From an uncultured Bacteroidota bacterium (GTDB taxonomy: Bacteria; Bacteroidota; Bacteroidia; Flavobacteriales; Flavobacteriaceae), in NCBI GenBank assembly GCA_902622575.1, contig CACNQJ010000001.1:10896-74895 (forward strand): a stretch of 64,000 bases of DNA, read 5' to 3'. Under the pieces are notes generated by a model, which was given only the letters and a program-made list of their open reading frames with translations, did no database searches and was not told where the DNA came from. The translations under genes were made by a program, and so were the position numbers. Positions 6,991 to 64,000 of the stretch are shown in pieces. Position 1 is the stretch's first letter; each line of letters starts with the position of its first letter.

Positions 6991-8650
6991 TTGGTAATCT
7001 TATATTTTCAACAAGTTGAACAATTTTTTTGGGTGGTGGTGGTGTGAAATTTGACACTGTAATCGAAACAATTAAATTAATGACCATTGCAATAGTTCCA
7101 AATCCCTCTGGTGAAACACCAAACCACCAATCATCAGGACCTCCTCCTCCAAACCATCCAAATTTGAACTTCGTCATATAAAAAAGCATTGATAAAATCC
7201 CTATGAGCATACCTGAAATAGCACCTTCTTTATTCATTTTCTTATAAAAAATTCCTAATACAATTGCAGGAAAAAATGAAGCTGCTGCAAGACCAAAAGC
7301 TAATGCTACAGTAGCCGCGACAAAGTCAGGGGGATTAATTCCAAAGTATCCAGCTAGTATGACAGCAAAGAATGCTGATACCCGAGCAGCAATCAATTCT
7401 CCTTTATCTGTAATTTCAGGATTGATAATTCTTTTAATTAGGTCGTGAGAAATTGATGAGGATATCACTAGTAAAAGTCCTGCCGCGGTGGATAATGCAG
7501 CTGCTATGGCTCCTGCAGCTAAAAGTGCAATAACCCAGTTAGGTAATTGAGCAATTTCAGGATTTGCCAAAACCATAATATCCTTATCAATTGTTAATTC
7601 GTTTAATTGTTCATCACCAAGATATTGAATTATGTTGTCCTGATTTTTATCATCAAACTCTAAAAGGCCAGTGTCTTCCCATTTTTTAAACCAGTAAGGC
7701 ATTGTTGAGTAGTCTTTTTCAGATACTGTCTCTATTAAATTTGTTCTTGCAAAAACTGCAATAGCTGGAGCTGTAGTATAAAGTATAGCTATAAATAGCA
7801 GAGCCCAGCCAGCAGATTTTCTTGCATCGCTAACTTTTTTTACAGTAAAAAATCTGACTATTACATGTGGAAGCCCTGCTGTTCCAATCATTAATGCGGC
7901 TGTAATTAGAAAAACATCTAGAGTAGATTTAGATCCTGAGGTGTATTCACTGAAACCTAACTCATCGTGAAGACCATTTAATTTATCTAATAAATAAACT
8001 CCATCCGCTGACTCAGAACCAAAACCAAGTTGTGGAATTGGATTGCCAGTCATTTGTATTGAAATAAAAATTGCAGGAACCATAAATGCAAAAATCAATA
8101 CGCAGTACTGAGCAACTTGTGTATAAGTAATGCCTTTCATTCCACCAAGAATTGCGTAAAAAAGAACTATTCCCATCCCAATAAAAACACCTGAATTTAT
8201 ATCAACTTCTAAGTATCTTGAAAATACAATTCCTACGCCTCTCATTTGTCCAGCGATATAAGTAAAAGATACAATAAGGGCACAAAAAACTGCAACGGTT
8301 CTTGCAACATTTGAGTAGTAGCGATCACCAATAAAATCAGGGACTGTAAATTTTCCGAATTTTCTTAAGTATGGAGCTAATAGTAGAGCCAATAAAACAT
8401 ATCCACCTGTCCAACCCATTAAATAAACTGAACCATCGTATCCAATAAAGGATATGATTCCTGCCATAGAGATGAATGATGCGGCACTCATCCAGTCCGC
8501 AGCGGTAGCCATACCATTTGCTATTGGATTAACACCCTTTCCGGCTATGTAAAATTCATTAGTAGAACCTGCCTTTGACCAAATTGCGATTCCTATATAT
8601 AATGCAAAAGTCAAACCTACAATTATCCAAATCCAAATTTGTAATGACAT
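6974..8650 (-). CDS. Sodium:solute symporter, ActP-like subfamily that pairs with DUF4212
   Basis: 558 aa and polytopic, with SSS-family segments ([42 protein letters not shown]). It lies directly downstream of a DUF4212 small subunit. Confidence 0.85.
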
Positions 8651-8655
8651 TATGA

Positions 8656-8910
8656 TTAATTTTTAGACCTATAAAATTTATCAAGCCTGTTCATCAAAAA
8701 AATGTAAACAAAAATTAAAATAACAAAGATGTAAATAGAACCTTGTTGAGCAAACCAAAATCCAAGTTTAAAACCAAAGAATTGGATTTCATTTAACTGC
8801 TCAGCTAATATTATTCCAAAACCAAATGAAACTAAAAACCAAATTGATAAAAGGATGGTTAAGTATCTAAGATTTTTTTTCCAGTAAATTTGAGCTTTAT
8901 TGTTTTTCAT
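8656..8910 (-). CDS. DUF4212 small membrane subunit of the solute:sodium symporter
   Basis: 84 aa with two TM helices, including [22 protein letters not shown]. It sits 5 nt upstream of the symporter. Confidence 0.8.
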
Positions 8911-8946
8911 GCTTGATGTGTGTAATTTAGTGATTATTTATTTTAA

Positions 8947-9987
8947 TTGAAAGTGAATATATCCAATTGCACATTACAATTTTTTTTAGTTTTTTTCTCA
9001 TTGCTTGTCATTGGATGTGATAGTGTTACCAACATAAAAAAATCAAATAACATTGTGAAAGATGGTATGGTTTTTATTGAGGGTGGCAAATTTATGATGG
9101 GAGGAGATAATGATGAAGCTAGGAGTGATGAGTTTCCAAAACATAGCGTAGAGGTAAGTTCTTTTTGGATGGATGAAAGCGAAGTTACCAATGCTCAATT
9201 TAAAAAATTTGTTGATGAAACAGGTTATGTTACAACCGCTGAAAGAAAAATTAATTGGGATGAAATTAAATCAGTATTACCACCTGGTACACCAAAACCT
9301 AATGATACTTTACTTGAACCCGCATCTTTAGTTTTTAAAGAAATCGAAACTAAAAATCTTGACAACTATTCCAAATGGTGGTCTTTAGTCAGAAATGCAA
9401 ATTGGAGACAACCATTTGGACCCGACAGTGATATTATTGGAAAAGACGATTATCCTGTAGTTCACGTTAGCTGGGAAGACGCAGTTGCGTATTGTGATTG
9501 GTCAGGTAAAAGATTACCCACTGAGGCTGAGTTTGAATATGCATCAAGAGGCGGTAAACTTAATAATATATACAGCTGGGGAAATGAAAAAATTGATGAA
9601 GTTGAATATAAAGCTAACAGTTGGAATGGAAACTTTCCGAGCACGAATACAGTTTTAGATAAATTCTATTACTCTTCACCTGTTAAATCATTCTCACCAA
9701 ATGGCTATGGGCTATTTGATATTGGTGGTAATGTTTGGGAGTGGTGTTCTGACTGGTACCACTCGGAATATTATTCAATGTTACCAAAAAAAGGATCTTT
9801 AAATCCACAGGGACCAAAAACAAGCTATGACCCAATGGAACCATACAGTGAAAAAAAAGTGATTAGGGGAGGCAGTTTTTTATGTAACGATTCATATTGC
9901 AGCGGATACAGGAATGCAGCAAGAATGAAAACAACTCCAGACTCAAGCTCATTACACACAGGATTTCGCACAGTCTATTCAGATTAA
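8947..9987 (+). CDS. Formylglycine-generating enzyme (sulfatase maturase), lipoprotein
   Basis: 346 aa with leader ...LLVIGCDS. Motifs are RLPTEAEFEYASRGG and GNVWEWCSDWY. RGGSFLCNDSYCSGYR retains both catalytic Cys codons (tgt 9883-9885, tgc 9898-9900). The start is non-ATG (TTG 8947 or GTG 8953). Confidence 0.85.
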   Translation: MKVNISNCTLQFFLVFFSLLVIGCDSVTNIKKSNNIVKDGMVFIEGGKFMMGGDNDEARSDEFPKHSVEVSSFWMDESEVTNAQFKKFVDETGYVTTAERKINWDEIKSVLPPGTPKPNDTLLEPASLVFKEIETKNLDNYSKWWSLVRNANWRQPFGPDSDIIGKDDYPVVHVSWEDAVAYCDWSGKRLPTEAEFEYASRGGKLNNIYSWGNEKIDEVEYKANSWNGNFPSTNTVLDKFYYSSPVKSFSPNGYGLFDIGGNVWEWCSDWYHSEYYSMLPKKGSLNPQGPKTSYDPMEPYSEKKVIRGGSFLCNDSYCSGYRNAARMKTTPDSSSLHTGFRTVYSD

Positions 9988-9992
9988 AAACT

Positions 9993-10027
9993 AAATGCCC
10001 AAATCTTTTGAGATGATTTGGGCATTT
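9993..10027. terminator. Bidirectional hairpin terminator between convergent genes
   Basis: aaatgcccaaatc (9993-10005), a 9-nt loop, then gatttgggcattt (10015-10027), flanked by A/T runs. Confidence 0.6.
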
Positions 10028-10100
10028 AAAAACAACAACTAACCAAAAAATATTATGTATTCTTTTTTGTATAAAACATTAACCATGCCAAACTTTATAA

Positions 10101-11012
10101 TTAGCTATTTTTTAATATGTCTTTCAATGAAAAAACTGTTCTGTAGCCCTTTTTTTGAAAATATTCTTTAGAATTATTAGGGCCAGCTGCCAATACAAAA
10201 TCACCTCCCCATGCACCTAAACTTTTAATCTCACCTTTGTAATCATTAAATAAAATAGTTTTTATCATTTTTCTTTTCAGTTCAGTTGACAGGATTTTTT
10301 CATGTTCAACAATTAAATTTTGAAAACTATTAAGATTCTTACATTCAACTATTTTTTCAGTTATTGATGATATTAATTTTATCGTTTTTTCACTGACCTT
10401 TATATTAGTGTTAAAATAGTCGACTTCATCCTCACTTTTTTGTTTCTTGTTCATGTAAATAAAAAATAAGTTATCATGAAATATTGGATCAAATATAATT
10501 TCATGATACTTAGGTTCATCATTTATTAATTCATAAATAATTGGACCATTTGCTATTGCAGATGCAATGTCATATCCACTTCCGTTTGATACCATAGTGT
10601 GAAGTTTAAATGGGTTTATGTTTGCCCATTTTGAAATATTACTTATTAAAGTAGATGATGATCCAAGCCCCCAACTTCTTTTGAAATTCATTCTCGAAAC
10701 AACTTTAAATCCTGAGTTGGTTTTTAAAAAATTTGGATTGATTTTTTTAGTGCTACAAAGTAATTTCTTTAAAAATAATGTTTCTTTATTTTTCGTGCTT
10801 AAAATTTTTAGATTACTCAAATCAAAAGTTGCTTCAATCCATGGATCATTATTTTTATCATAGCTGACCCAGATCAATTTACTCTCTTTTATGCCCTCAA
10901 TTTTTAGGGTTTGATAAAATTTGGTTGGAATACTCAGAGATTTAGCACCTTTTAAGACAAAATACTCTCCAGTAATTAAAAGTTTTCCATGACTTTTAAA
11001 AATCGAGTTCAT
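10101..11012 (-). CDS. GYDIA-family GHMP kinase (candidate mevalonate-pathway kinase)
   Basis: 303 aa with KLLITGEYFVLKG, GLGSSSTL and the family-naming GSGYDIASAI motif. It overlaps the HMG-CoA reductase stop by 17 nt. Confidence 0.8.
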   Translation of the reverse strand: MNSIFKSHGKLLITGEYFVLKGAKSLSIPTKFYQTLKIEGIKESKLIWVSYDKNNDPWIEATFDLSNLKILSTKNKETLFLKKLLCSTKKINPNFLKTNSGFKVVSRMNFKRSWGLGSSSTLISNISKWANINPFKLHTMVSNGSGYDIASAIANGPIIYELINDEPKYHEIIFDPIFHDNLFFIYMNKKQKSEDEVDYFNTNIKVSEKTIKLISSITEKIVECKNLNSFQNLIVEHEKILSTELKRKMIKTILFNDYKGEIKSLGAWGGDFVLAAGPNNSKEYFQKKGYRTVFSLKDILKNS

Positions 11013-12315
11013 TTTTTTTCAATTTATTTAATGCATCTTCAACATCTCTAAAACTAACTTTATGTTTTTTAAAATATTCAATCAAAATTTTTTTTTCACT
11101 CTCATTAGCACTTAATGAGTTTAATATATTAATTAGGTGCATTTTCATGTGTCCAAGTTGAATACCCGAGGTTATTAAAGACCTAATTGCAGCAAAATTT
11201 TGTGCCAGACCTGCAACTGAAATAATTTTCATTAATTCAGATCCTGATGGATTTTTTAATAATTTCAGACACCATTTAACTAATGGATGAAGGTTTGTAA
11301 TACCTCCTACACTTCCAATAGCTAAAGGAATTTCTATCCAGTAAACAAATTCATCATTTTCAATAGCTGCATGTGTGAGGCTTGAGTATACCCCGTCCTT
11401 TGAGGCATATGCATGGGTGCATGCCTCAACTGCTCTAAAATCATTTCCTGTAGCAATAACGACTGAATCAATTCCATTCATAATTCCTTTGTTATGAGTA
11501 ACTGCTCTATTGATATCTTTTTTGGCAATTTCAATTGCATCAACAAATCTTTGAGCAAATTTTAAAGGATCAACAATATCATCACTTTTTAATTCATCAA
11601 CTTTACACCTTACTTGAGATTTAACTATACATTCAGGAACATAATTAGATAAAATACTCATTAATATTTCAATACCATCATTTTTTTCAAAATAGTCTGA
11701 TTCATTAAATTCAGTTTCAAATGTTTTTGCATATTGTTCTAAACAAGAATTAATAAAATTTGCACCCATTGAGTCTGCAGTATTAAACTCAGAGTTCAGC
11801 TGATAGTAATTTTTTATTGAACTTGTCTTGTCAATTAATTCAATATTTAAAATACCACCACCTCTTTTTTCCATATTTTTTGTGAGGCCTGAACATTCAG
11901 ATATTAATTTAATCTTAATACTTTCAAAAAACTTGAAAAGTTTTTCTTTAGATCCATTGTATTTGAAGTGAACTTGTCCAGTTTTAATTGTGTCTATAAT
12001 TTCAGTTCTAAAACCACCTCTTTTGGACCAGTATTTAGCAGCTTTACAAGCTGCAGCAACTACTGAGCTTTCCTCAGTTGCCATTGGAATAGTATAATTT
12101 TTATTATCAATTATAAAATTAGGAGCAATACCAAGAGGAAGAAAAAAATTAGAAATTGTATTTTCAGAAAATTCATCATGAATTTTCTGGAGTTCCTCGT
12201 CATTAGACCAGTATTTTTTAAGAATATCAGAATCTATTTTTGATGAATTAAAAAAATTGTCAATTACCCAATCAATTTTTTCACTCTTATTTAGTTTTGA
12301 AAAACCTTCTTTCAT
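10996..12315 (-). CDS. mvaA: Hydroxymethylglutaryl-CoA reductase, class II
   Basis: Class II HMGR-like segments are PMATEESSVVAAA, DSMGANFIN, THNKGIMNGIDSVVIATGNDFRA and LAQNFAAIRSL. I prefer the ATG at 12315 (MKEGFSKL) because the track's TTG at 12327 lies inside a promoter box. Confidence 0.9.
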   Translation of the reverse strand: MKEGFSKLNKSEKIDWVIDNFFNSSKIDSDILKKYWSNDEELQKIHDEFSENTISNFFLPLGIAPNFIIDNKNYTIPMATEESSVVAAACKAAKYWSKRGGFRTEIIDTIKTGQVHFKYNGSKEKLFKFFESIKIKLISECSGLTKNMEKRGGGILNIELIDKTSSIKNYYQLNSEFNTADSMGANFINSCLEQYAKTFETEFNESDYFEKNDGIEILMSILSNYVPECIVKSQVRCKVDELKSDDIVDPLKFAQRFVDAIEIAKKDINRAVTHNKGIMNGIDSVVIATGNDFRAVEACTHAYASKDGVYSSLTHAAIENDEFVYWIEIPLAIGSVGGITNLHPLVKWCLKLLKNPSGSELMKIISVAGLAQNFAAIRSLITSGIQLGHMKMHLINILNSLSANESEKKILIEYFKKHKVSFRDVEDALNKLKKNELDF

Positions 12316-52404: not shown

Positions 52405-53271
52405 TTGTACTTTTACTTCCCTATCAACTTTTTTTATTAAACCACACAACACTTTACCTGGACCAAATTCCGTAAAACTATTTGCACCATCATTTAACAT
52501 ATTTTCTACAGATTGTGTCCATTTAACTGGAGATGTTAATTGATTAATTAAATTAATTTTAATTTTTCTAATCTCAGATTCAGGTTTTCCATTTACATTT
52601 TGATAAATAGGGCAGGTAGGATTTTGAAAATTTATGTTGTTAATTGCCTCGCTTAACTCATCTTGAGCATCTTTCATAAGTTGAGAGTGAAATGCTCCAC
52701 TTACTGGTAATATTAGACTTCTTCTTGCACCAAGTTCATTGAATTTTTCACAAATAGATTTTACATCATTAAAGTTTCCTGAAATAACGACTTGTCCAGG
52801 ACAATTAAAATTTGCAGCAACTACATAACCTTGAAAACTTTCACAAGTTTCCTCAATTATTTTATCATCCAAACCGAGAATTGCAGCCATCCCTCCTTTA
52901 TTATTTTCACACGCTTTTTGCATAGCCAGTGCTCGAATTGATACAAGTTTTAAACCGTCACTAAAGCTCATAGATTTGTTGGCTACTAATGCAGAAAATT
53001 CACCGAGAGAATGCCCAGCCACCAGACTTGGATTAACATCATTTTCATTTAGGTACAACTCAGCAATCGAATGTAAAAATATAGCTGGTTGTGTGACCTT
53101 GGTCTGTTTTAGTTCCTCTTCAGAACCATGAAACATTATTTTTGAAAGGTCAAATCCAAGTATATCATCGGCTTCTTCAAAAAGCTGTTTGATTTTTTTT
53201 GAGCTGTTGTAGGCATCAAGTCCCATCCCTGGGAATTGAGCACCTTGACCTGGAAATACAAATGCATTCAT
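52393..53271 (-). CDS. fabD: Malonyl-CoA:ACP transacylase
   Basis: 292 aa with FVFPGQGAQ, GHSLGEFSAL and VSGAFHS. Confidence 0.9.
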   Translation of the reverse strand: MNAFVFPGQGAQFPGMGLDAYNSSKKIKQLFEEADDILGFDLSKIMFHGSEEELKQTKVTQPAIFLHSIAELYLNENDVNPSLVAGHSLGEFSALVANKSMSFSDGLKLVSIRALAMQKACENNKGGMAAILGLDDKIIEETCESFQGYVVAANFNCPGQVVISGNFNDVKSICEKFNELGARRSLILPVSGAFHSQLMKDAQDELSEAINNINFQNPTCPIYQNVNGKPESEIRKIKINLINQLTSPVKWTQSVENMLNDGANSFTEFGPGKVLCGLIKKVDREVKVQSAF

Positions 53272-54161
53272 TATTTTATTTTATTATATGTAATAAACGT
53301 AAAGTCATAATTATGGTTATCATCTTTTTTATTTGTAATTTTTTTTGTTTCTGCCCATTTACTTTTATCAATATTAGGAAATGAAGTGTCTCCTTCAAAA
53401 TGATGATGAACTCTGGTTAATTCAATTCTATCGCTAATATCCATTGCTATTTTATATATTTCACCCCCTCCAATTATAAACGGTTGGGGATCTTCAGAAG
53501 CTATCGATAGAGCTCCTTCTAATGAATTAGTTACAATTGCATTTTCAGCTATATAATCTTTTTTTCTTGTAATAATAACATTAGTTCTATTAGGTAAAGC
53601 TCTTGGCATTGATTCAAATGTTTTTCTTCCCATTATAACATGATGACCTTTTGTTAATTCTTTAAATCTCCTCAGATCATTACTCAAATGCCAAATCAGT
53701 TTGTTCTTATTTCCAATAATATTATTTTCAGATGCAGCAACAATAATTGTAACCAATTGCGATTTTTTATTATAAAACTCCACTTCTGCTTTTATTTTTG
53801 ATTCTAATTGCATTTTTTCTTTGATACTTTCAATTTCTTTTTGCTGAATATTTATCAATTTATTTTTTTGATTTTTTATCCATCTGCTATTGATAAACCT
53901 GTCTGTCACATAAACTTTAAAAACATGAAAAATAAGTATGAAAAACCAACAAAAAACAATCCAAAATGACCACGAATAGTCGAGAAGAGTAATGTCAGAC
54001 CCAACATTAAAAATATAATCGAGAGATGAGCTAATTGCGCAACCAAAAATGAAAAACACAAAGTGAGAATAAAGAAATTTTTTTTGCCTTATTCTCTTTT
54101 GAGCATATTCAAGTTGTTCAATTTGTTCATTATCAATATCTGAATTACTTTTAACTTTCAT
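53271..54161 (-). CDS. folA: 2TM-domain membrane segment fused in frame to dihydrofolate reductase
   Basis: The N-terminal ~100 aa are 2TM-like (KRIRQKKFLYSHFVFFIFG, WSFWIVFCWFFILIFHVF), followed by a K/E-rich linker. DHFR starts about nt 53756 (VTIIVAASENNIIGNKNKLIWHLSNDLRRFKELTKGHHVIMGRKTFES). I chose the ATG at 54161. An internal ATG at 53813 is an alternative DHFR start. Confidence 0.7.
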   Translation of the reverse strand: MKVKSNSDIDNEQIEQLEYAQKRIRQKKFLYSHFVFFIFGCAISSSLDYIFNVGSDITLLDYSWSFWIVFCWFFILIFHVFKVYVTDRFINSRWIKNQKNKLINIQQKEIESIKEKMQLESKIKAEVEFYNKKSQLVTIIVAASENNIIGNKNKLIWHLSNDLRRFKELTKGHHVIMGRKTFESMPRALPNRTNVIITRKKDYIAENAIVTNSLEGALSIASEDPQPFIIGGGEIYKIAMDISDRIELTRVHHHFEGDTSFPNIDKSKWAETKKITNKKDDNHNYDFTFITYNKIK

Positions 54162-54167
54162 AGAGTG

Positions 54168-54175
54168 CAAAATTA
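54168..54175 (-). promoter_or_regulatory. TAnnTTTG -7 box (TAATTTTG) for the 2TM-DHFR gene
   Basis: Exact match on the minus strand with 6 nt before the ATG at 54161, so the transcript would be near-leaderless. Confidence 0.45.
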
Positions 54176-54204: not shown

Positions 54205-55248
54205 TTGGTGAGATTTTATAAAGATTCAAATAAAGTATATCTAGATAGTGCCAAGGCTAGTCCTTACTACTATGAATTATTGGATTGGAGAAATAATTAT
54301 GAAAAAAAATCATTAATTAAAAAAAGTGAAATAAGAGTAAATCATAAAAAAATTGTTGAAAATGTAAAAAATGAGTTAGCAGATTTTTTTGAATTAAAAA
54401 ACGGAGATGTTTTTATAACTAATTCTTTTTCTCAGGGTTTCCAATCCTTAGTAAATCAAATAAAAGGTAAGCCAAAGTTTATAGTTCTTGAAGATGATTA
54501 TCCCTCAATATCCAATGCTATAAAAAAAAATAATTTTGAATTAATATTTGTAAAAAATGATTCTAACATAGAAAATAACATAAAAATTGCTGTTGATAAA
54601 TTCAATCCTGATTTCCTAGCTATTTCCGTAGTACAATGGATTGATGGAATATTAATTGATGAAAATTTTTTGAAAAAATTAAAGTCAAAATATAAAAATC
54701 TTACAATTATTGCAGATGGAACACAGTTTTGTGGGACGTGTAATTTTAATTTTGAGAAATCACCATATGATGTATTAATTTCAAGTGGTTATAAGTGGAT
54801 GTTCGCAGGCTATGGAGTTGCATTCCTATTGATAAAAAATCATTTTTACAAAAATATATTTTTAAAATCAGACAAATTACAAATGGAAAATGCTATTGAA
54901 ATAGGTCACTATGATATGTTAGCTATTGGTAGCTTATCCTTTTCACTAAAAAAGCTTTCAAAATCAATTAATGCAATAGAAAAAAAATTGAAAGAATTGT
55001 CTATAATCGTAATGTTTGAATTAAAAAATCTTAATCTACTTAATGATAAAGTTAAAATTAGAACCAAACACTCAACAATTTTCAATATTAAAGATCCAGA
55101 GGGAGCTCTGTATGATTGGTTATCTAATAATAATTTTATTTGCTCAAAAAGAGGTAATGGTGTTAGAATTAGCTTTAATTTTTTTAACAATAAAACAGAA
55201 ATAAAAAAACTAATTAAGACAATAAAAAAATTTAACTCGTTACTTTAA
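54205..55248 (+). CDS. Class V aminotransferase-fold PLP enzyme (cysteine desulfurase/kynureninase-like)
   Basis: 347 aa with TTG start. It has VYLDSA, a candidate PLP lysine in SSGYKWMFAGYG, and RISFNFFN. Confidence 0.65.
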   Translation: MVRFYKDSNKVYLDSAKASPYYYELLDWRNNYEKKSLIKKSEIRVNHKKIVENVKNELADFFELKNGDVFITNSFSQGFQSLVNQIKGKPKFIVLEDDYPSISNAIKKNNFELIFVKNDSNIENNIKIAVDKFNPDFLAISVVQWIDGILIDENFLKKLKSKYKNLTIIADGTQFCGTCNFNFEKSPYDVLISSGYKWMFAGYGVAFLLIKNHFYKNIFLKSDKLQMENAIEIGHYDMLAIGSLSFSLKKLSKSINAIEKKLKELSIIVMFELKNLNLLNDKVKIRTKHSTIFNIKDPEGALYDWLSNNNFICSKRGNGVRISFNFFNNKTEIKKLIKTIKKFNSLL

Positions 55249-55921
55249 ACTTAGATACACCTGAATCAGAGTTGCTTCCTGAATTATCTTTACTAATCAC
55301 TTTCCAGAAGTAGGTTCCTGGCGTCGTCATATCATGATTAATTGAGCTGGAGGTCTGATTAGATTTAACTTTTGTGGTTGGAGGATTAGATGTGTCTATA
55401 TATATATCGTATGTTAGAGTATCACCTGAGTCAGCATCACTTCCCGACCATTCAAATTTTACTGAACCTGCAGTTACGGTAGCTTCTGATTTTGGACTAA
55501 TTAAATCTGCCGGAAATGGAGAATAATTATTTACTGGATCGCCTTTTAAATAAAACTTCCATTTTTCACTTTCAGCGGTTTCTGTTGTGCTGTTTGATTT
55601 AGAAATAATATACCAAGAGTATGGTTGTCCCTTTGTAAGTTTTATCGTCGTACTTGTGGAACTTGTAGTTTGATTTAAGGGAACTTGTGTCAATAAATTT
55701 TTTACTATTATTTCATAACTATCTGTATTTTCAGATGCTGTCCATTTAAATTCAACATTTTCTCCATCTAAACACTCAGAGTTTTTAGTGGGAGCGTTCA
55801 GTGTTACTGCAGTTGGGGCAGGCACAGGAGGTGGAGTTGATCCACCACCGTCACCATCATCTTTTTTACAAGATGATAAGATGGTTAATACTACAAATAG
55901 TAAATACTTTAATTTATTCAT
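55232..55921 (-). CDS. Lipoprotein with two FN3/Ig-like repeats
   Basis: 229 aa with lipobox LSSCKKDD and a Gly/Pro linker. Two ~90-aa repeats each contain V(E/K)F(K/E)W...D(S/T)...Y(E/D)I. ATGA overlaps the stop of the upstream giant gene. Confidence 0.65.
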   Translation of the reverse strand: MNKLKYLLFVVLTILSSCKKDDGDGGGSTPPPVPAPTAVTLNAPTKNSECLDGENVEFKWTASENTDSYEIIVKNLLTQVPLNQTTSSTSTTIKLTKGQPYSWYIISKSNSTTETAESEKWKFYLKGDPVNNYSPFPADLISPKSEATVTAGSVKFEWSGSDADSGDTLTYDIYIDTSNPPTTKVKSNQTSSSINHDMTTPGTYFWKVISKDNSGSNSDSGVSKFKVTS

Positions 55922-58900
55922 TCTTTTATAAGTTTAGCAGTTTTTTTAACAGTTTCTGATTCGACTTTTACGTAGTAAAGGCCTGGTTTTAAATTAGAAA
56001 CTTGTATATCAATAGATCTTGAACTAGGGACATTATTTTCATTTGTCCACAGCAATCTACCAGCATTATCGAACATACTCATATTTACATTCTTATCATT
56101 ACCACCTATCCAAAGTTTTGATGATGATCTGGCTGGGTTTGGACTTAATAAAATATTTTCCGAGTTAAATATTGTTTCTTCGTATACTCCTTGACATTCT
56201 TTTTCGCCATAAACTTTTATTACGTTCAGTCCTTTTTTAAGTTCTAAGGCAAATTCAGATTTGTCTGTTTGAATTGGATTATTATTATGAATGATGGTAT
56301 ACGTTTTACTTCCACTCATATTTAGATCAATAGTATTGGACCCTTTAGCTCTTGCAGCTAAAACTGAAATATCTTGAGGTTCAGTTATAATGACATTAAA
56401 GCATTGTTCAAAATTTGTAATAGAGTTTGTAGTTAGACAAACAGTGTAGGTAGCAGCTTGCAGATTTTCTAATACCCAACTGTCTGAATCTAAAATTTCA
56501 GGTGTGTGGGTGAACCCTGACGGACCACCTTTGATAGCCAATGTGAATTTAATACCACTGTCATCTAAAACACCTTGTGTTTTAATATCCAATTGCATTC
56601 TACCATCGTTAGAATTTCTACATGTTTCGTTTGAAGATTGTAAACTGAATGTATCATTTGGAAGTGGATTAGAATCACATACATCTCCAATATTGTCTCC
56701 ATCTAAATCTTGTTGATTTGGATTGTAGGTTTCGGGACAATTATCAACATCGTTCTTGACACCATCTTTATCATTATCATCAGAAATTACATTAAGAGTT
56801 ATTGCTAGCTCTCTAGATTTGCTTGTCGATACAGCTTTAAATTTTAAATCATACTGACCTAATTCAGTATCTTCACCGACTTCAAGTTCAATTGTTAGTT
56901 TACCGTCCTGATTAACAGTAAATTTTTTGGCAGGACTATAATTAGCTTCAACACCTTCAGGTAAACCTTCAATTGTGAAAATTATTTCTTCGTTAAAGTC
57001 ATTATAAACTCTGTAATCAACATCAAAACTTTTTGTATCACCAGCTAGAATTTCAATTGATTGGGTGGTGCTGCTGATTGTAAATGTGGGTTCTGAATTT
57101 TGAAAATGGCCAGAAAATATTCCAAGTCCATACGTAGAAATAAAAACCTTATTATCACCTTTTCTCATATCCATATCAGTCACCCTTAAATCTTTCATAC
57201 CTGCATTGGCTTGAGCCCATTTAGGATCATCAGAGCTAAAATTATTGGTAAACCAAACACCAAGTTCAGTACCAATAATTACTTCATCAGAATCTAAAGG
57301 GCTTTGAAGTATATTATAGACAGGTATATCTGGTAAGTTACCTTCTTTACTAGCCCAATTTTGACCTCCGTCACTTGAATAAAAAATACTTTTTACCCCA
57401 TAGTTGTAAAACGTAACAAAAATCTCATTTTCATCCTTTCCAAATTCAATATCTGAAACACTACCAATAAATTCATTACCGCTAATTATTTCTTTGGTTT
57501 GATTCGATGTGTTTTCAGCATTTGAAACCTTCCACAGATAACCATTTTCTGTTCCAACGTATAGAGTAGATGTTTGATTTTGAAATTGTGCAACATTAAG
57601 TGCAGTTGCTGTTGCTCCTAAGCCACTTATCACGTAATTATCTTTGATAGAGTTTGCATTAGAAAAATCATCCCAGTTGTAATAGGCTCTTACATTCCCG
57701 TTACCTGCATTAGCATATATTATTCCTAAATTGGAGTCAAGCGTGGCTCTATTTATAAAATCCCCCTCATCATCCTCATTATTTGAAATACGGTAACGAC
57801 CAGCTCTATCGTTTGATTGCCCAGGGTTTAAATTTAAAACTCTCACACTATTATTATAAACATAATTGTAAACTACATATCTGTTGTTATTATTTTGTGA
57901 AAACATAGTAGCTGCACCATCTCCACTTCCAAAGTCATTTGCAAGGGAAAATCCATCATCATTATCAGCTTGAATTGATGTTCCATTGTCTTGCATTCCA
58001 CCAGAGAAGACATCATCATGTCCTTCAATTGTAGTAAACATTTTGTATACAAAGCTACCAGCTCCGCCACTTGCATCTGGATCCCAAGACCCTTGTTCGG
58101 GATCATATCCATATACAACTGTTTTACCGTTTTTGAACATATTAAACGGTGCCACCGCTACAGTGTAATATTGTGCGGTGTGGAAGTTTTTACTACGAGT
58201 TTCTAGTGAACCGCCACTTGAGGAAAAAGCAACTCCTCCATCGCTTCCCACAAGCATTCTTAGAGGATTATTTTTATTAAAAATCACAGAATGTTGGTCT
58301 GCATGTACATATTGTGCATATCGTCCTCTCGAATGCGTCAGTTGTCCCCATGAATTTCCACCAGAATTTGAGCTAAATAGATTGATTCCACCCGCATATA
58401 ATTTGTCTTTGTTTGTTGGATGAGCTTCCAAAGAAACGCTGTAATAGCCCTGACCTCTTGCAAAATCATATTGATTTATTCCATCATCTTGATCTACAGG
58501 TGGATCCAATTCGGTTTGATTCCCTGAAATCCATTCTTCAATAGTTCCTTTGTAAAGCCTAGGTGGCAGTCTGCAGTATCCATCTTCACACTTTACAGCA
58601 ATACATAATACAACAAGTTCATTGTCAGCTGTAAATGCCATTTCAGTCCTTCTTCCATCATATGTAGTATTGCCTCGCTGTGTTTTAATTTCTTGAATTA
58701 AAGTCGCAGAATCACCATCGTCGTTTAACCTGTATATTTTTCCACCACCTTTGGGAGGATTGTCACCCCACTGATCACCAACAAGTTGATACTGAGGGCT
58801 AATTGTAGATGATGCCCATAATCTATTATCGTTATCTAACTCTAAATCCATAGGAACGACTGCAAGGTTATGTATTTTATTCTCTTCATTAATAGGATAA

Positions 58901-60264
58901 AAAAGCTCAATTTTTGTCCAGTTTGAGCCCCCATCGACAGACTTGTAAATTGCATCATGTCCAGAACCAAGAATTGTATTGGTTTTTTCTTTATCCCAAA
59001 TTCTTGAACCTGCAGCTACATAAATTTCAGAATTACCATCATTATTCCTCACTACAACGTCATTTATAAAAAACATTCCGGGTACTATTCTAGCCCCTGA
59101 ATATGCATAATTGGTTTGCTTTCTTATTTTGATAGTTGTTTCTTTTTCTTCAATTTGATTTTTAATATTGTTTCCATCTGACGCTCTGACATAAATTGAA
59201 GGAATTTTGACTGCTGTTGGGTCTCCATTCACAATATCCATTGTTTTTAAATCGTCTGTCCAATTTGCAGATCCATTATCCTTATTATAAACTACTACAG
59301 CGACAGCACCAGCATTTTGTCCTTCAATAATTTTTTTGAAATAACTACAACTATCACCACTAAGAGCGCCGTCTTCAATTAAGACTATTTTTCCATCGAT
59401 TTCAGATGCATTTGAAAGAGTTGAACAACCATCGACAGGGTTTGCTATTATGATTTGTTTTTCAAGATATTTTTGAGGGGGGCCGGGAAGGTTGGGGCCA
59501 AAAGAAGCTTGTAAAAAATTAATCGGGCTTGAATCAGTTGATGTAATATCAACTTCGTTTATCTGGCTTGTAAAAGTTTGTTCGGAAGATGAACTTCCTC
59601 CAAAAATATTAGTCCAGCTTGCACCACCATCTGTTGATTTCCAGAGACCATTGCCAAGAGCATCTCCGCCAGTGTAAATTTCACCTGTGCCAGCATAAAA
59701 AATATTAGTATTGTTAGGATCATATGTTAGCACAGATACTGGGAGATTCCTTGGAACACCTTTAATCATTTTCCATTCAGAATCCTTATCATCAATATTA
59801 TCATTAACAAAAATTCCACCACTAACACCACCTGCAAATACTCTCTTATTCGAGCTGTCATTCGGATCGAACATAATACCATTTGTTCTGCCGGCAATGT
59901 TCGATGGACCTCTCGGGACCCAAGCCATGTCTGGGTTTTCTCCGGGCACACCAGGTATCTTATTCATAGATTGTTCGTATAGATCATCTTGAATTTTATA
60001 AAGATTCTCTGTTAGTGGACGGCCTAGAATTGGATCCATTGTTAATTCCCAAATTCTATCATTATAAGGATTTGGAGGCAGCTGTAAATTTTTCCTTTCA
60101 GCTTTGGAGAGTTTTTTGGTATTCTTGAATGGACTATTTTTTAGATTTTCAATGTGCATTTCTCTTATAGATTCAATATCTAAACTATCCTCAGAATTAT
60201 AATTTATTACGAAGCCACATATTGCAGCGAAAACTAATAAAAAAAGAAACCTATTTTTTCTCAT
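55918..60264 (-). CDS. Giant T9SS-secreted surface protein: BNR/VPS10-like propeller with inserted PA domain, TSP3 repeat, Ig-like domains, T9SS C-terminal sorting domain
   Basis: The ATG at 60264 gives the signal peptide MRKNRFLFLLVFAAICGF. Asp-box motifs are KSTDGGASW, KSVDGGSNW and SSDGGQNW. The PA-like segment is GCSTLSNASEIDGKIVLIEDG...AGAVAVVVYN and the TSP3 repeat is DNCPETYNPNQQDLDGDNIGDVCD. The T9SS CTD tail is LSPNPARSSSKLWI...GLYYVKVESETVKKTAKLIKE. Confidence 0.85.
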   Translation of the reverse strand: MRKNRFLFLLVFAAICGFVINYNSEDSLDIESIREMHIENLKNSPFKNTKKLSKAERKNLQLPPNPYNDRIWELTMDPILGRPLTENLYKIQDDLYEQSMNKIPGVPGENPDMAWVPRGPSNIAGRTNGIMFDPNDSSNKRVFAGGVSGGIFVNDNIDDKDSEWKMIKGVPRNLPVSVLTYDPNNTNIFYAGTGEIYTGGDALGNGLWKSTDGGASWTNIFGGSSSSEQTFTSQINEVDITSTDSSPINFLQASFGPNLPGPPQKYLEKQIIIANPVDGCSTLSNASEIDGKIVLIEDGALSGDSCSYFKKIIEGQNAGAVAVVVYNKDNGSANWTDDLKTMDIVNGDPTAVKIPSIYVRASDGNNIKNQIEEKETTIKIRKQTNYAYSGARIVPGMFFINDVVVRNNDGNSEIYVAAGSRIWDKEKTNTILGSGHDAIYKSVDGGSNWTKIELFYPINEENKIHNLAVVPMDLELDNDNRLWASSTISPQYQLVGDQWGDNPPKGGGKIYRLNDDGDSATLIQEIKTQRGNTTYDGRRTEMAFTADNELVVLCIAVKCEDGYCRLPPRLYKGTIEEWISGNQTELDPPVDQDDGINQYDFARGQGYYSVSLEAHPTNKDKLYAGGINLFSSNSGGNSWGQLTHSRGRYAQYVHADQHSVIFNKNNPLRMLVGSDGGVAFSSSGGSLETRSKNFHTAQYYTVAVAPFNMFKNGKTVVYGYDPEQGSWDPDASGGAGSFVYKMFTTIEGHDDVFSGGMQDNGTSIQADNDDGFSLANDFGSGDGAATMFSQNNNNRYVVYNYVYNNSVRVLNLNPGQSNDRAGRYRISNNEDDEGDFINRATLDSNLGIIYANAGNGNVRAYYNWDDFSNANSIKDNYVISGLGATATALNVAQFQNQTSTLYVGTENGYLWKVSNAENTSNQTKEIISGNEFIGSVSDIEFGKDENEIFVTFYNYGVKSIFYSSDGGQNWASKEGNLPDIPVYNILQSPLDSDEVIIGTELGVWFTNNFSSDDPKWAQANAGMKDLRVTDMDMRKGDNKVFISTYGLGIFSGHFQNSEPTFTISSTTQSIEILAGDTKSFDVDYRVYNDFNEEIIFTIEGLPEGVEANYSPAKKFTVNQDGKLTIELEVGEDTELGQYDLKFKAVSTSKSRELAITLNVISDDNDKDGVKNDVDNCPETYNPNQQDLDGDNIGDVCDSNPLPNDTFSLQSSNETCRNSNDGRMQLDIKTQGVLDDSGIKFTLAIKGGPSGFTHTPEILDSDSWVLENLQAATYTVCLTTNSITNFEQCFNVIITEPQDISVLAARAKGSNTIDLNMSGSKTYTIIHNNNPIQTDKSEFALELKKGLNVIKVYGEKECQGVYEETIFNSENILLSPNPARSSSKLWIGGNDKNVNMSMFDNAGRLLWTNENNVPSSRSIDIQVSNLKPGLYYVKVESETVKKTAKLIKE
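55920..56760 (-). repeat. Copy 1 of an exact ~841-bp direct repeat (3' coding module of the T9SS paralogs)
   Basis: It matches 60292-61132 at a constant offset of 4372. I spot-checked this over five separate lines. The protein tails and the shadow ORFs 56504-56716 and 60876-61088 are also identical. Confidence 0.9.
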
Positions 60265-60289
60265 GTATTTTTGCAATTTACTTTAAAAA

Positions 60290-63200
60290 TTATTCTTTTA
60301 TAAGTTTAGCAGTTTTTTTAACAGTTTCTGATTCGACTTTTACGTAGTAAAGGCCTGGTTTTAAATTAGAAACTTGTATATCAATAGATCTTGAACTAGG
60401 GACATTATTTTCATTTGTCCACAGCAATCTACCAGCATTATCGAACATACTCATATTTACATTCTTATCATTACCACCTATCCAAAGTTTTGATGATGAT
60501 CTGGCTGGGTTTGGACTTAATAAAATATTTTCCGAGTTAAATATTGTTTCTTCGTATACTCCTTGACATTCTTTTTCGCCATAAACTTTTATTACGTTCA
60601 GTCCTTTTTTAAGTTCTAAGGCAAATTCAGATTTGTCTGTTTGAATTGGATTATTATTATGAATGATGGTATACGTTTTACTTCCACTCATATTTAGATC
60701 AATAGTATTGGACCCTTTAGCTCTTGCAGCTAAAACTGAAATATCTTGAGGTTCAGTTATAATGACATTAAAGCATTGTTCAAAATTTGTAATAGAGTTT
60801 GTAGTTAGACAAACAGTGTAGGTAGCAGCTTGCAGATTTTCTAATACCCAACTGTCTGAATCTAAAATTTCAGGTGTGTGGGTGAACCCTGACGGACCAC
60901 CTTTGATAGCCAATGTGAATTTAATACCACTGTCATCTAAAACACCTTGTGTTTTAATATCCAATTGCATTCTACCATCGTTAGAATTTCTACATGTTTC
61001 GTTTGAAGATTGTAAACTGAATGTATCATTTGGAAGTGGATTAGAATCACATACATCTCCAATATTGTCTCCATCTAAATCTTGTTGATTTGGATTGTAG
61101 GTTTCGGGACAATTATCAACATCGTTCTTGACGCCATCTTCATCAACATCATCAGACGTAACTTCCAATAATATTCCCAAAGTTTTTGATTGAGTATTAG
61201 AGGTTGCGTTGATAGTAAGAGGATAACTCTTTACTTCAGCATTTTCACTTATTGTTAAATCAATTTTTAAACTATCGTCTTGATTGACAATAATATTATT
61301 ATCTGGATCGTAGCTTTCTATAGTATTTTCAGGAAGTCCATCAATACTAAATTGAACATTTTCATTAAAGTCATTAAGTGATCTAATGTTAATATTAAAT
61401 GATCCTGTCTCTCCTTTGAATATTGTGATGTCATCTACATCAGTTGAGATTCTAAATGTTGGCTCACCACCAGTCTCTGTGAATATAGAAGAGTAAACAC
61501 CTAATCCGTATGTAGAGGCAAATACTTTGTAGTCATCTCTCATATCAAGATCTGTTATCCTAACATCTTTCATTCCAGCATTGGCACGTGACCATGATGG
61601 ATTTTCGGTATCGAAGTTTTTTGTAAACCAAACACCAAGTTCGGTACCAACAATTACTTCGTTTTCTAAAAGAGGATTTTGTAAAATACATCTTACAGGT
61701 ATATCAGGCAGATTACCCTCCTTTTTTTGCCATGTTTCACCACCATCTTCGGTGTAAAATATGTTTTCAACTCCATAATTATGAAACGTAACAAAAATAT
61801 GATTTTCGTCCTTGCCGAGTTCAATATCAGAAACACTACCAACAAATTGTTGGTCTGTTAGACTGGTAAATTTAGCATCAGATTGTCCTGTCGTTGAATT
61901 TGGAACAGAATTAGCATTTTCAACTTTAACAACTTGTCCAGCCTCTGTACCAAAGTAAAGTGTAGATGAAATTTTTGTATATGGTGAAACGGTTAATGCA
62001 GAAACATTTGATGTCAAAAAGGTTGAGTTGGAGAGGATAAAGTTAGGAGCATTCACTCCTCTGTCCTCAGTTTTGAAATCATCCCATCCATAAATAACTA
62101 TTATTCTATTTTGTCCATAATTTGAAAAAACAACACCTTGATTTGAGTCAAGAGCTTGTGTAGTTATGAAGTCTCCATTGCTTCCATTTTCATCTAGTAA
62201 CTGAAAAATAACAGAGCCATCACCATTCAAATTAACAGCATCAACTGCGTTGTTGTATACATAATTTTGAATGAAATATTTTTTATCTGGATTTTGTGAA
62301 AACATTGTCGCCGCACCATCACCACCACCAGATCTTGTTGCTATTGTAGTGCCATTGCTTCTATCAACAGAAAATTGTGTACCATTATCTTGCAATCCGC
62401 CTGCGAAAACATCTTGCTTTCCGTCCGAGCTTGCAGATACTAATTTGCTTGAAGAATTTGAGTACCTTGAATCCCTGCCATACACTCTAACTTGATGGTC
62501 TGAGAACATGGTTGAGGGTGCAACTGCAATGGTGTAATATTGAGATGTGTGGAAATTATCGTTTCTAGTTTGAATATTATCTCCACCATCTGTTGATAAG
62601 AAAATTCCACCATCATTAACAAACAAAATTTTATTTGAATCTGACTCTAAAATAGATGCTCCATGTTGATCAGCATGGACATACTGTAGATTATTACCTC
62701 CATACCACTGGCTTAATTGTGCCCAAGGATTTGTAGTTCCTGAAGCTCCACCATTAGAAGTTCTATGTAGATTAATTCCACCAACAAAAACCTTACTCGG
62801 ATTGAGGGGATCTGCTTCTAACATCTGATCGTACCAATGCTGACTTCTAGTAAACTCACCGTTTATGTCAACTGCATCAGGTAGTGTAACTTCTGTCGGA
62901 AGAACATTTAAACCATTTACACCTTTAAATAATTTTACTGGATCACCTTCCGAATCTCTAGTTGAGGAAAATATCCACACAGAGTTATTTGTCGTTACTT
63001 CAATTTCAGTTCTTCCAGGGTCAAATTCCTCATCAACTTGATATTTTTTTGTAAAGTTGTCACCAGAACTATCTGATTGCCAAATTCCACCACCACCATT
63101 TCCAGAAACATCACGTGTTGATGAAACCCAGACTGTATTATCAACAGGACTAAGTTCCAAATCAATTGGATGAATGGGATTGTTTGTGTTTTCGATAAAA

Positions 63201-64000
63201 ACATTAATTTTTTTCCAGTTTTGTCCCCCATCAGTTGATTTGTACAAACCATAATCTTCAGCACCAAATAACGTTCTTGGTGCATCCCTGTATCCCGAAT
63301 AACCCACCGCTACATAGACTTCAGAAGCTCCTTCATTGTTTCTAACAACAACATCATTAATATAAAATGAGCCAGGAACTATGGTGTAACCAGAAGCAAC
63401 AGTTACTGTTTTTTGAATTGATAAGGTTACGTTATCATTATTCTTCATCAAATTTCTCAAAGTATTACCATCAGCTCTAGAGATCATTATGGTTGGAATA
63501 TTTATTGAACTCAAATCTACAGATCCATCTGTTGGGGCACTCATACCTACTGGTGGACCATCTACATTGTTGATGATTATTAAAAGTTTAGCTCCAGCGG
63601 CTTGCGCATTGACTGTTTTTGTCGCGAAATAACATGCTCCTCTGTCAACAACAGCAATCTTGCCACTTATAGATCCAGAATTAGAAAGAGATGAACAACC
63701 ATCCTGTGCAGTTCCATTACTGTCAGTCCCATCTCCAGAAGCATCAGTTCCGGCAATAGCATCCAGGACTATGGGTGAATCTGTTGGTACACCAGGCCCA
63801 AAGGAAGCTTCAACATACCTGAAAGTTCTATTGGAATTAGGGTTATTTATTTTAACTACGTTGTAACCACTCTCATAACTAGATTCTGTATCGCCTCCCA
63901 TTACTTTATTCCAAGATTCCCCACCATCAATTGATTTCCATAGTCCATTTCCAAGGGCGTCACCACCTGTGTATGATTCTCCTGTGCCAACATAAAATAT
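60290..64000 (-). CDS. Paralogous giant T9SS-secreted surface protein (5' end beyond the window)
   Basis: It has the same architecture. My translation of 63902-64000 continues the frame (IFYVGTGESYTGGDALGNGLWKSIDGGESWNKV) and matches the paralog's residues ~192-225, so the true start lies outside the window. Confidence 0.85.
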   Translation of the reverse strand: MFYVGTGESYTGGDALGNGLWKSIDGGESWNKVMGGDTESSYESGYNVVKINNPNSNRTFRYVEASFGPGVPTDSPIVLDAIAGTDASGDGTDSNGTAQDGCSSLSNSGSISGKIAVVDRGACYFATKTVNAQAAGAKLLIIINNVDGPPVGMSAPTDGSVDLSSINIPTIMISRADGNTLRNLMKNNDNVTLSIQKTVTVASGYTIVPGSFYINDVVVRNNEGASEVYVAVGYSGYRDAPRTLFGAEDYGLYKSTDGGQNWKKINVFIENTNNPIHPIDLELSPVDNTVWVSSTRDVSGNGGGGIWQSDSSGDNFTKKYQVDEEFDPGRTEIEVTTNNSVWIFSSTRDSEGDPVKLFKGVNGLNVLPTEVTLPDAVDINGEFTRSQHWYDQMLEADPLNPSKVFVGGINLHRTSNGGASGTTNPWAQLSQWYGGNNLQYVHADQHGASILESDSNKILFVNDGGIFLSTDGGDNIQTRNDNFHTSQYYTIAVAPSTMFSDHQVRVYGRDSRYSNSSSKLVSASSDGKQDVFAGGLQDNGTQFSVDRSNGTTIATRSGGGDGAATMFSQNPDKKYFIQNYVYNNAVDAVNLNGDGSVIFQLLDENGSNGDFITTQALDSNQGVVFSNYGQNRIIVIYGWDDFKTEDRGVNAPNFILSNSTFLTSNVSALTVSPYTKISSTLYFGTEAGQVVKVENANSVPNSTTGQSDAKFTSLTDQQFVGSVSDIELGKDENHIFVTFHNYGVENIFYTEDGGETWQKKEGNLPDIPVRCILQNPLLENEVIVGTELGVWFTKNFDTENPSWSRANAGMKDVRITDLDMRDDYKVFASTYGLGVYSSIFTETGGEPTFRISTDVDDITIFKGETGSFNINIRSLNDFNENVQFSIDGLPENTIESYDPDNNIIVNQDDSLKIDLTISENAEVKSYPLTINATSNTQSKTLGILLEVTSDDVDEDGVKNDVDNCPETYNPNQQDLDGDNIGDVCDSNPLPNDTFSLQSSNETCRNSNDGRMQLDIKTQGVLDDSGIKFTLAIKGGPSGFTHTPEILDSDSWVLENLQAATYTVCLTTNSITNFEQCFNVIITEPQDISVLAARAKGSNTIDLNMSGSKTYTIIHNNNPIQTDKSEFALELKKGLNVIKVYGEKECQGVYEETIFNSENILLSPNPARSSSKLWIGGNDKNVNMSMFDNAGRLLWTNENNVPSSRSIDIQVSNLKPGLYYVKVESETVKKTAKLIKE
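60292..61132 (-). repeat. Copy 2 of the exact ~841-bp direct repeat
   Basis: See copy 1. The first mismatch is 61133 g versus 56761 a, a synonymous GGC/GGT Gly codon. The stop codons just outside the repeat differ (TAA versus TGA). Confidence 0.9.

Follow-up and report, generated by a model that had tools for sequence, protein, structure and literature searches.

In Helicobacter pylori, the 3′ segments of the paralogous genes babA and babB, and of homA and homB, cluster by strain as a result of intragenomic gene conversion (PMC2795765), and concerted evolution of the 3′ segment goes back to Pride and Blaser (2002), as that study is cited and extended in the same paper. In Porphyromonas gingivalis, the genes rgpA, kgp and hagA contain identical adhesin-domain sequence which defeats automated assembly, and they exchange domains in a modular fashion (PMC5266723). 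Here we describe a comparable pattern in a 64-kb stretch of DNA (the window; positions 10,896 to 74,895 of contig CACNQJ010000001.1, assembly GCA_902622575.1) from an uncultured member of the Flavobacteriaceae. Two tandem genes of this window, A and B, encode cargo proteins of the type IX secretion system (T9SS); they have diverged to saturation over most of their length, and they end in an identical 841-nt repeat which is very probably maintained by gene conversion. All window coordinates below refer to the numbering of this stretch.

The bab and hom genes resemble A and B in that they are paralogous genes for surface or outer membrane proteins (OMPs) whose 3′ parts are homogenized while their function-specific 5′ and middle parts diverge, and the resulting trees have the same pattern. 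However, the H. pylori loci are dispersed, whereas A and B are in tandem, and the homogenized part is the membrane-anchoring C-terminus of an autotransporter-like OMP in H. pylori and a T9SS stalk with its sorting domain here. In addition, conversion in H. pylori also moves the variable part, leading to antigenic or adhesin switching, whereas the N-terminal parts of A and B are stably orthologous. The P. gingivalis genes likewise encode T9SS-secreted surface proteins of Bacteroidota, and their identity lies C-terminal to the functional domain. Their shared parts are haemagglutinin or cleaved-adhesin domains (CADs, DUF2436) which recur several times, both within single genes and between unlinked ones, and strains differ by domain rearrangement; in contrast, A and B are adjacent and share a single contiguous tail that includes the C-terminal sorting domain (CTD) and has a boundary conserved across species.

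More generally, tufA and tufB are duplicated genes that are homogenized within a genome. Ribosomal RNA operons are kept identical by conversion (PMC6002687), and gene conversion in bacteria is covered by Santoyo and Romero (2005), a source cited in the H. pylori paper above. As in these cases, the copies described here are identical within a genome and diverge between genomes; unlike them, what is homogenized is not a whole gene or operon but the 3′ module of otherwise saturated paralogs, so that a single open reading frame (ORF) holds two histories. In cassette systems of antigenic variation (Neisseria pilE/pilS, Borrelia vlsE, Anaplasma msp2), silent truncated donors alter the variable part of one expressed gene. 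These systems also rely on conversion between related surface-protein sequences, but A and B are both full-length, and conversion acts on their conserved part and leaves the variable parts stable. We therefore rejected cassette-type antigenic variation as a description of A and B: both are full-length in two related genomes (L001 and L002, introduced below), and their N-terminal parts, 98.9% identical between strains, keep their orthology across species.

In the literature on gene conversion, concerted evolution and T9SS, we found no description of the A/B locus or its family. The process itself is already known, and the locus reveals no new mechanism. What sets A and B apart is that they are in tandem, include the sorting domain, keep their variable parts stable and have the same tract across many free-living marine species. 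They provide an unusually clean, lineage-wide case of partial-gene concerted evolution in which the tract is conserved to the codon across species with saturated synonymous sites, and they show that the pattern of the H. pylori OMPs and P. gingivalis gingipains also occurs in Flavobacteriaceae that are free-living and genome-streamlined, where it takes in the T9SS sorting domain itself. Because related lineages capture shrinkage of the tract and escape from it, the locus is useful for estimating how fast conversion proceeds in uncultured marine bacteria and how its tracts change.

An exact repeat at the 3′ ends of diverged paralogs

A base-by-base comparison of positions 55920-56760 (minus strand, gene B) with positions 60292-61132 (minus strand, gene A) found 841 of 841 nucleotides identical, in direct orientation and at an offset of 4372 nt. 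An earlier reading of the DNA by a model, made from its letters and their ORFs (the sequence-only reading), had proposed this identity and its sharp end at 56761/61133, and the comparison bore out both. Each copy of the candidate conversion tract comprises the last 280 codons and the first base of the stop codon. A codon alignment showed these 280 codons to be 100% identical, every third position included, and third-position identity falls from 1.00 within the tract to 0.3–0.5 directly upstream. Ungapped 100-nt windows just upstream of the tract are ∼50–60% identical, as against 100% within it. Searches with tblastn and blastn detected no third copy of the repeat in the 64-kb window.

Upstream of the tract, the amino acid identity of A and B is 43.5% for 897 aligned residues, with values for single 40-codon blocks between 19% and 72%, which is lower than the 50–70% that the sequence-only reading had estimated. 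Nonsynonymous (dN) and synonymous (dS) divergence there are 0.54 and 1.77, respectively, the latter being saturated, and the longest exact match is 20 nt. The repeat is thus a discrete tract which ends in an abrupt change of synonymous divergence, and chance cannot produce 841 nt of identity beside divergence of this extent.

Tails group by genome and flanks by paralog

We compared the window with related loci, among them L001, from an independent metagenome (gene B 99% identical to that of the window); L002, a TARA scaffold (gene B 79% identical); L003, L005, L006 and L019, from single-cell assemblies; and L004 (FRAM18_bin219), a 1.84-Mb PacBio HiFi metagenome-assembled genome (MAG) of the NS4 marine group. 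Counted after the stop-codon mismatch where one is present, the identical 3′ stretch of A and B extends over 849 nt in L001, 847 nt in L002 and 842 nt in L004. In L019 the stretch is 844 nt with one internal single-nucleotide polymorphism (SNP), and in L003 it has the same start point as in the others, with a 1-nt indel in A which shifts the ungapped comparison. Within a genome, such tails are 99.8–100% identical; between genomes, identity is 97.2% and 76–78%. Specifically, the window and L001 share 97.2% of the tail and 98.9% of the upstream orthologous sequence, while the window and L002 share 77.7% of the tail (dS 1.64) and 73–75% of the upstream sequence. Upstream identity between paralogs (∼57%) is below that of either set of orthologs.

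Neighbor-joining trees gave two different histories for the two parts of the genes. A tree of the N-terminal 900 amino acids resolved clades by paralog (A, B and a third paralog, C), each spanning many genomes, whereas trees of the last 280 and the last 130 amino acids grouped strictly by genome. In the orthologous loci of relatives, likewise, A and B do not differ from each other uniformly along their length. Within the tract, then, paralogs are closer to each other than to their orthologs, and the flanks follow the paralog, as is characteristic of concerted evolution. Because the flanks group by paralog, repeated fresh duplication of the genes is excluded. Phylogenies inferred from the C-terminal end of proteins of this kind will mislead. 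Between the window and L001 there are 23 differences in the tail, and all 23 are carried by both copies in each genome; homogenization must therefore have occurred later than the split of these ∼99% identical strains.

The window by itself could be explained by a single recent event confined to its own genome, since one conversion, partial duplication or domain swap would suffice for an exact 841-nt repeat. However, at least six genomes have an identical or nearly identical tail pair of ∼845 nt, these tails differ between genomes up to saturated dS, and all 23 differences from L001 are common to both copies. A one-off event would have to recur independently, with the same boundary, in every lineage, and that would amount to recurrent conversion; we judge a single event very improbable. 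Even more remote is purifying selection on the nucleotide sequence, such as an embedded RNA or regulatory element conserved without recombination. It would account for identity at synonymous sites and for nothing else, and the tail is free to change between genomes, as the 77.7% identity and dS of 1.64 between the window and L002 show; we give this explanation next to no weight.

We consider it highly probable that the repeats are the homogenized 3′ ends of ancient tandem T9SS paralogs which are kept alike by recurrent intrachromosomal gene conversion. The distribution of the tails indicates that this conversion is a recurrent, long-term process spanning species-level divergence rather than one recent event. 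The sequence-only reading had put forward recent gene conversion, or concerted evolution, that affects the C-terminal secretion and anchoring module alone. The near-identical tails in L001, L002, L003, L004 and L019 and the discordant trees agree with the process and its confinement; as to its age, the differences shared with L001 place homogenization very recently, but as the continuation of a process and not as a single recent event.

According to this model, non-reciprocal homologous recombination would repeatedly overwrite one tail (TSP3 repeat, two beta-sandwich domains and T9SS sorting domain) with the other. The two tails of a genome would change together, tails of different genomes would still diverge, and the cycle would perpetuate itself, with identity permitting conversion and conversion restoring identity. 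At the 3′ side, the tract would be limited by the end of homology at the stop codon, with the TGA of gene B additionally fixed by an overlapping ATG. At the 5′ side, the limit would be set by the paralog-specific Ig-like domain and propeller, which are diverged and probably function-specific. Mutations piling up at the edge would make the tract retreat toward the 3′ end, from ∼845 nt through ∼409/384 nt to ∼283 nt, until the pair escapes. The data show directly the exact identity, its presence in further genomes, the conflicting trees, the positions of the boundaries and the ATGA overlap; the involvement of RecA-type conversion, the role of selection at the boundary and the direction of erosion are the parts of this model that we infer.

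In the six genomes, the two copies of ∼845 nt differ by at most one substitution and one indel. By rough inference from a simple two-copy model, and with the caveat that assemblers may have removed differences, the per-site conversion rate would exceed the mutation rate by orders of magnitude. We rejected GC-biased conversion; third-position GC content (GC3) of tail and upstream sequence did not differ consistently in four genomes.

Several points weigh against recurrent conversion as the full account. The mechanism is drawn from the sequence pattern. In the window, exact as opposed to near identity is that of the assembly, and short-read assemblers can pop bubbles and so erase a few differences between copies. 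A neutral, homology-limited model predicts that the boundary creeps inward, whereas six genomes with saturated dS have it at one and the same codon. Finally, between the window and L001 the tail diverges slightly faster than the upstream sequence (23/846 versus 48/3501 differences, Fisher p = 0.009), which stems mostly from one 52-nt patch. This patch (56332-56383 in B and 60704-60755 in A, minus strand; positions 415-466 from the 3′ end) holds 15 of the 23 tail differences and turns EPQDISVLAAR into QPLDITVLSNR. Both copies carry the same version in the window and likewise in L001, and the patch adjoins the ∼409-nt boundary found in other genomes. It looks like a mosaic import from another paralog or strain which then spread to both copies.

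The 5′ boundary, shorter tracts and escaped pairs

The 5′ boundary (56760/56761) lies inside the TSP3 repeat, at a D-x-D|G-(V/I) motif behind the paralog-specific Ig-like domain, and the window shares this codon position with L001, L002, L003, L004 and L019. A private C/T difference in copy A of the window shifts it by 8 nt relative to L001. In an AlphaFold2 model of the tail, the predicted Ig-like domain ends at residue 132 and the tract starts at residue 141, and the ∼845-nt boundary thus coincides with the Ig-like/TSP3 domain junction. The residues just upstream read SDDVD(E/N)DG in A and SDDNDKDG in B, each form being kept across four genomes.

Other genomes have shorter tracts. The tract is 384 nt in L006 and ∼283 nt in L079, and paralog C shares ∼409 nt with A, and with B where B is present, in L004, L022 and L058. 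In L005, L025 and L081, the tandem pair has no identical tract. Identity in L005 and L025 drops with distance from the 3′ end, from 74–83% in the last 300 nt to ∼40%, and this gradient fits a stepwise retreat. Shorter tracts and escaped pairs together suggest erosion of the tract. We considered whether tract boundaries in general are domain boundaries and rejected it; the ∼409/384-nt boundary sits within a beta-sandwich, after its first strand.

One MAG, FRAM_WSC20 bin_54_1, contains a B-type gene outside the thyA–DHFR neighborhood in which the pair otherwise occurs (L009, 9991-14371). The C-terminal region of this gene is longer, unrelated and equipped with extra TSP3 repeats, and its tail is unlike that of the A-type gene from the same MAG (L073, 9943-14233), suggesting, with mis-binning as a caveat, that adjacency is needed for homogenization.

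The fixed 5′ boundary bears on a further explanation, in which conversion is the mechanism and the tract persists because co-expressed A and B profit from the same stalk and sorting module, whether through equal recognition by the T9SS or anchoring machinery or through assembly into a common surface structure, either of which could be the benefit. In its favor, the boundary stays at the same codon and domain junction in six genomes despite saturated dS, the paralog-specific residues directly upstream are kept across four genomes, A and B are 13–25 nt apart and probably co-transcribed, and small genomes such as FRAM18_bin219 still keep two or three copies of a 4.3-kb gene. However, the tract is shortened or lost with both genes intact in L005, L006, L025, L079 and L081, and the ∼409/384-nt boundary is not at a domain junction. 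T9SS cargo proteins of one genome normally carry divergent CTDs, which argues that identity is not needed for secretion. Moreover, tail dN/dS between close strains is not lower than upstream (0.20 versus 0.07–0.15). We regard selection for identity as unlikely to be what sustains the tract, although the fixed boundary may owe something to selection, either against conversion of the paralog-specific domain or in favor of a common stalk and sorting module.

It is correspondingly doubtful that, in streamlined marine Flavobacteriaceae, selection favors homogenization of the stalk and sorting module of co-expressed T9SS cargo and holds its boundary at the Ig-like/TSP3 junction. If it did, conversion would match the secretion and anchoring ends of distinct paralogs to each other and to the T9SS machinery, and the direct repeats would act as a built-in switch by which populations gain or lose entire paralogs.

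Assembly of the repeat

A rival explanation is that one tail, or its exact identity, was made by the assembler from a collapsed or re-used repeat node, in which case the true copies would differ or the tail would belong to one gene only. In the window, the repeat is known from the assembly; in several single-cell amplified genomes (SAGs; L008, L035 and L036), B stands alone on a contig of 3.4–3.9 kb, and L030 is a contig that overlaps itself in a loop. On the other hand, the A/B repeat structure is also found in the independent metagenome L001, the TARA scaffold L002 and the single cells L003 and L019. In the HiFi MAG L004, assembled with metaFlye, reads of ∼9.6 kb span the 4.4-kb spacing of the repeats. 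No mixture of populations is possible in single cells, and L019 retains a SNP between its copies, which argues that assemblers there preserve differences. The tandem layout is independent of the repeat, since L005 combines it with diverged tails. Even with bubble-popping, near-identity beside 43% identity would still need conversion. The recurrence of the structure in independent assemblies, single cells and a PacBio HiFi MAG thus answers the warning of the sequence-only reading about assembly collapse, which is unlikely. We see very little chance that an artefact explains the repeat: a wholesale artefact at the window locus is very unlikely, and at most a few real differences between the copies could have been erased.

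The repeat has practical consequences, because it breaks or loops short-read and single-cell assemblies and copies are thereby lost from MAGs. Assemblers break or loop at the repeat, and contig ends cluster qualitatively within the final quarter of the gene. We did not rely on the statistic for this enrichment (25/30, binomial p = 1.6e-11), because the peptide patterns used for retrieval bias where truncated contigs can end. We also searched for overlaps between contigs of the same SAG or MAG; most pairs gave nothing, and only L007/L028 and L029/L030 were informative. The Megahit (k141) contig L030 starts and ends with the same 141 nt (1-141 = 4436-4576), and it runs from the C-terminal half of B through the tail and the spacer into the N-terminal half of B. 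Judged by this content, it is an assembly-graph repeat loop emitted as a pseudo-circular contig, and it could be mistaken for a small circular element or a B–B tandem.

The sequence-only reading had also pointed to the repeats as a substrate for rearrangement, and it is plausible that they drive deletion or amplification of a whole paralog. In L018, A is joined to the lipoprotein gene that normally follows B, through a B-type ATGA. We did not accept this as deletion of B by recombination between the repeats, because an assembly that skips the loop looks alike; such loop-skipping assemblies with an L018-like layout are L021 with L008, and L024 with L035.

Individual assemblies showed other irregularities. 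The 1-nt indel in the tail of gene A in L003 (6417-10726) splits the gene into ORFs at 6417-10017 and 9856-10726, and it is either a SAG consensus error or recent pseudogenization. L040 and L041, both from MOX_bin70, are 92% identical over 4.5 kb of the same cargo gene, which points to a mixture of strains in the bin or to one more diverged duplicate. In L060 (10000-14245) and L076 (9967-14249), the cargo gene is in two ORFs; the contig names are typical of long-read assemblers, and the splits are probably homopolymer frameshift errors and not real pseudogenes.

Products of genes A and B

Gene B (55918-60264, minus strand) is a complete T9SS cargo gene which, from its ORF and translation, encodes 1448 amino acids when read from an ATG; the ORF starting from a TTG spans 55918-60276. 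Gene A, its upstream tandem paralog, is partial (60290-64000, minus strand). Two statements of the sequence-only reading are corrected here: both genes are on the minus strand, and gene A extends past the end of the window, its frame being open at base 64000. The cut is that of the window and not a truncation in the genome, and the N-terminus of A falls outside the window; its orthologs have 1425 amino acids in L001 and 1428 amino acids in L002. An exact match to the gene B sequence was not found in the assembly index, and we used instead its 99% identical ortholog, P0001, from an independent assembly. In tblastn, gene B is 53.8% identical to the gene A region when the shared tail is included.

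The product of gene B consists, in order, of a putative signal peptide, a BNR/Vps10-like beta-propeller with an inserted PA domain, an Ig-like domain, a TSP3 repeat, two beta-sandwiches and a type A T9SS CTD. Read by eye, its N-terminus, MRKNRFLFLLVFAAICGF, has a basic and then a hydrophobic stretch, which makes a signal peptide plausible. Both A and B have a PA domain (Pfam) and BNR/Asp-box signals, and some homologs are annotated as Sortilin-Vps10. Searches of PDB and of profiles matched the N-terminal propeller and PA region to no solved structure or named family.

Flavobacteriaceae generally possess a T9SS. The CTD of gene B (55927-56142, minus strand; 60299-60514 in gene A) matches PF18962 (Por_Secre_tail) at 38.3 bits, with 38.6 bits for A (cut-off 27), and TIGR04183 at 40.9 bits (cut-off 23), scores which identify type A sorting domains in both predicted proteins. 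The TSP3 calcium-binding repeat of gene B (56713-56781, minus strand; residues 1166-1188 in Pfam TSP_3; 61085-61153 in gene A) scores 22.3 bits against PF02412 (TSP_3), just under the cut-off of 25, while that of A scores 26.3 bits. Residues 1161-1198 of gene B also match thrombospondin-2 (E = 4.7e-11) and COMP in PDB. Taken with the profile, these solved thrombospondin repeats support its assignment as a TSP3 repeat.

We modeled the last 420 residues of B with AlphaFold2 (mean predicted local distance difference test, pLDDT, 84.8). The model predicts an Ig-like domain at residues 31-132, an unstructured TSP3 stretch at 133-177, beta-sandwiches at 178-265 and 272-339 and the sorting domain at 343-419 (model residues). 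A Foldseek search of the model against PDB returned generic multi-Ig/FN3 chains only, confirming a string of beta-sandwich beads and nothing further. The sequence-only reading had described the tail as TSP3, Ig-like domains and a sorting domain; the first and last are recognized by Pfam, and between them the model places the two beta-sandwich domains.

The spacer between A and B (60265-60289, minus strand) measures 25 nt if B starts at the ATG at 60264 and 13 nt if it starts at the TTG at 60276; because it is so short, the two genes are probably one operon.

The downstream lipoprotein gene

Behind gene B lies a gene for a lipoprotein of 229 amino acids (55232-55921, minus strand) with an LSSC lipobox and two Ig/PKD-like domains, for which matches are weak and PKD/SusE-like. 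It overlaps gene B by 4 nt in an ATGA (55918-55921, minus strand; TCAT on the plus strand), with the TGA of B sharing its T and G with the ATG of the lipoprotein gene, which suggests translational coupling of the two. The identity of the tails stops inside the stop codon, and the TAA of A is followed by the short spacer and then gene B. As the sequence-only reading had noted, the stop codons differ, with TGA in the downstream gene B and TAA in the upstream gene A; they do so because the stop of B overlaps the ATG of the lipoprotein gene and homology ends there. The same TAA/TGA pairing is found in L001, L002 and L003. The 4-nt overlap also occurs in L001 (9143/9146) and L002 (11588/11591), and in L003 tblastn places the lipoprotein start at 15099 and the end of B at 15102.

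The lipoprotein gene is syntenic in all related loci, and in genomes with the third paralog, C, a diverged copy lies behind C too. Lipoprotein genes of this kind are at 4957-5436 and 14512-14994 in L004 and at 10948-11430 and 16006-16488 in L022. What was duplicated is therefore a cargo gene together with its lipoprotein gene, and this hints at a functional partnership between them.

Related loci and neighborhood

Related loci were retrieved by peptide patterns near residues 145 and 996; a metagenome scan returned only four loci. Homologs of A and B are abundant in marine metagenomes, the carriers of the cargo genes being MAGs and single-cell genomes of uncultured Flavobacteriaceae, and the tandem pair is kept in many of these marine lineages (NS4-type MAGs and SAGs). 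The cultured genera Tenacibaculum, Olleya and Formosa have one distant copy with 34–40% identity. A protein search for other architectures with the 280-residue tail found none, returning only contig-truncated fragments and short ORFs, and is uninformative on the rest of the genome.

The conserved gene order begins with nupC, thyA, an optional C gene with its own lipoprotein gene, A and an optional B, and it ends with the lipoprotein gene, an aminotransferase gene, a 2TM-DHFR gene and an acyltransferase gene. In the window, the 2TM-DHFR gene (53271-54170, minus strand) encodes DHFR fused to an N-terminal 2TM membrane domain (Pfam 2TM and DHFR_1). The cargo array lies between thyA, seen upstream in L001 and L002, and DHFR, and so interrupts a folate-related neighborhood.

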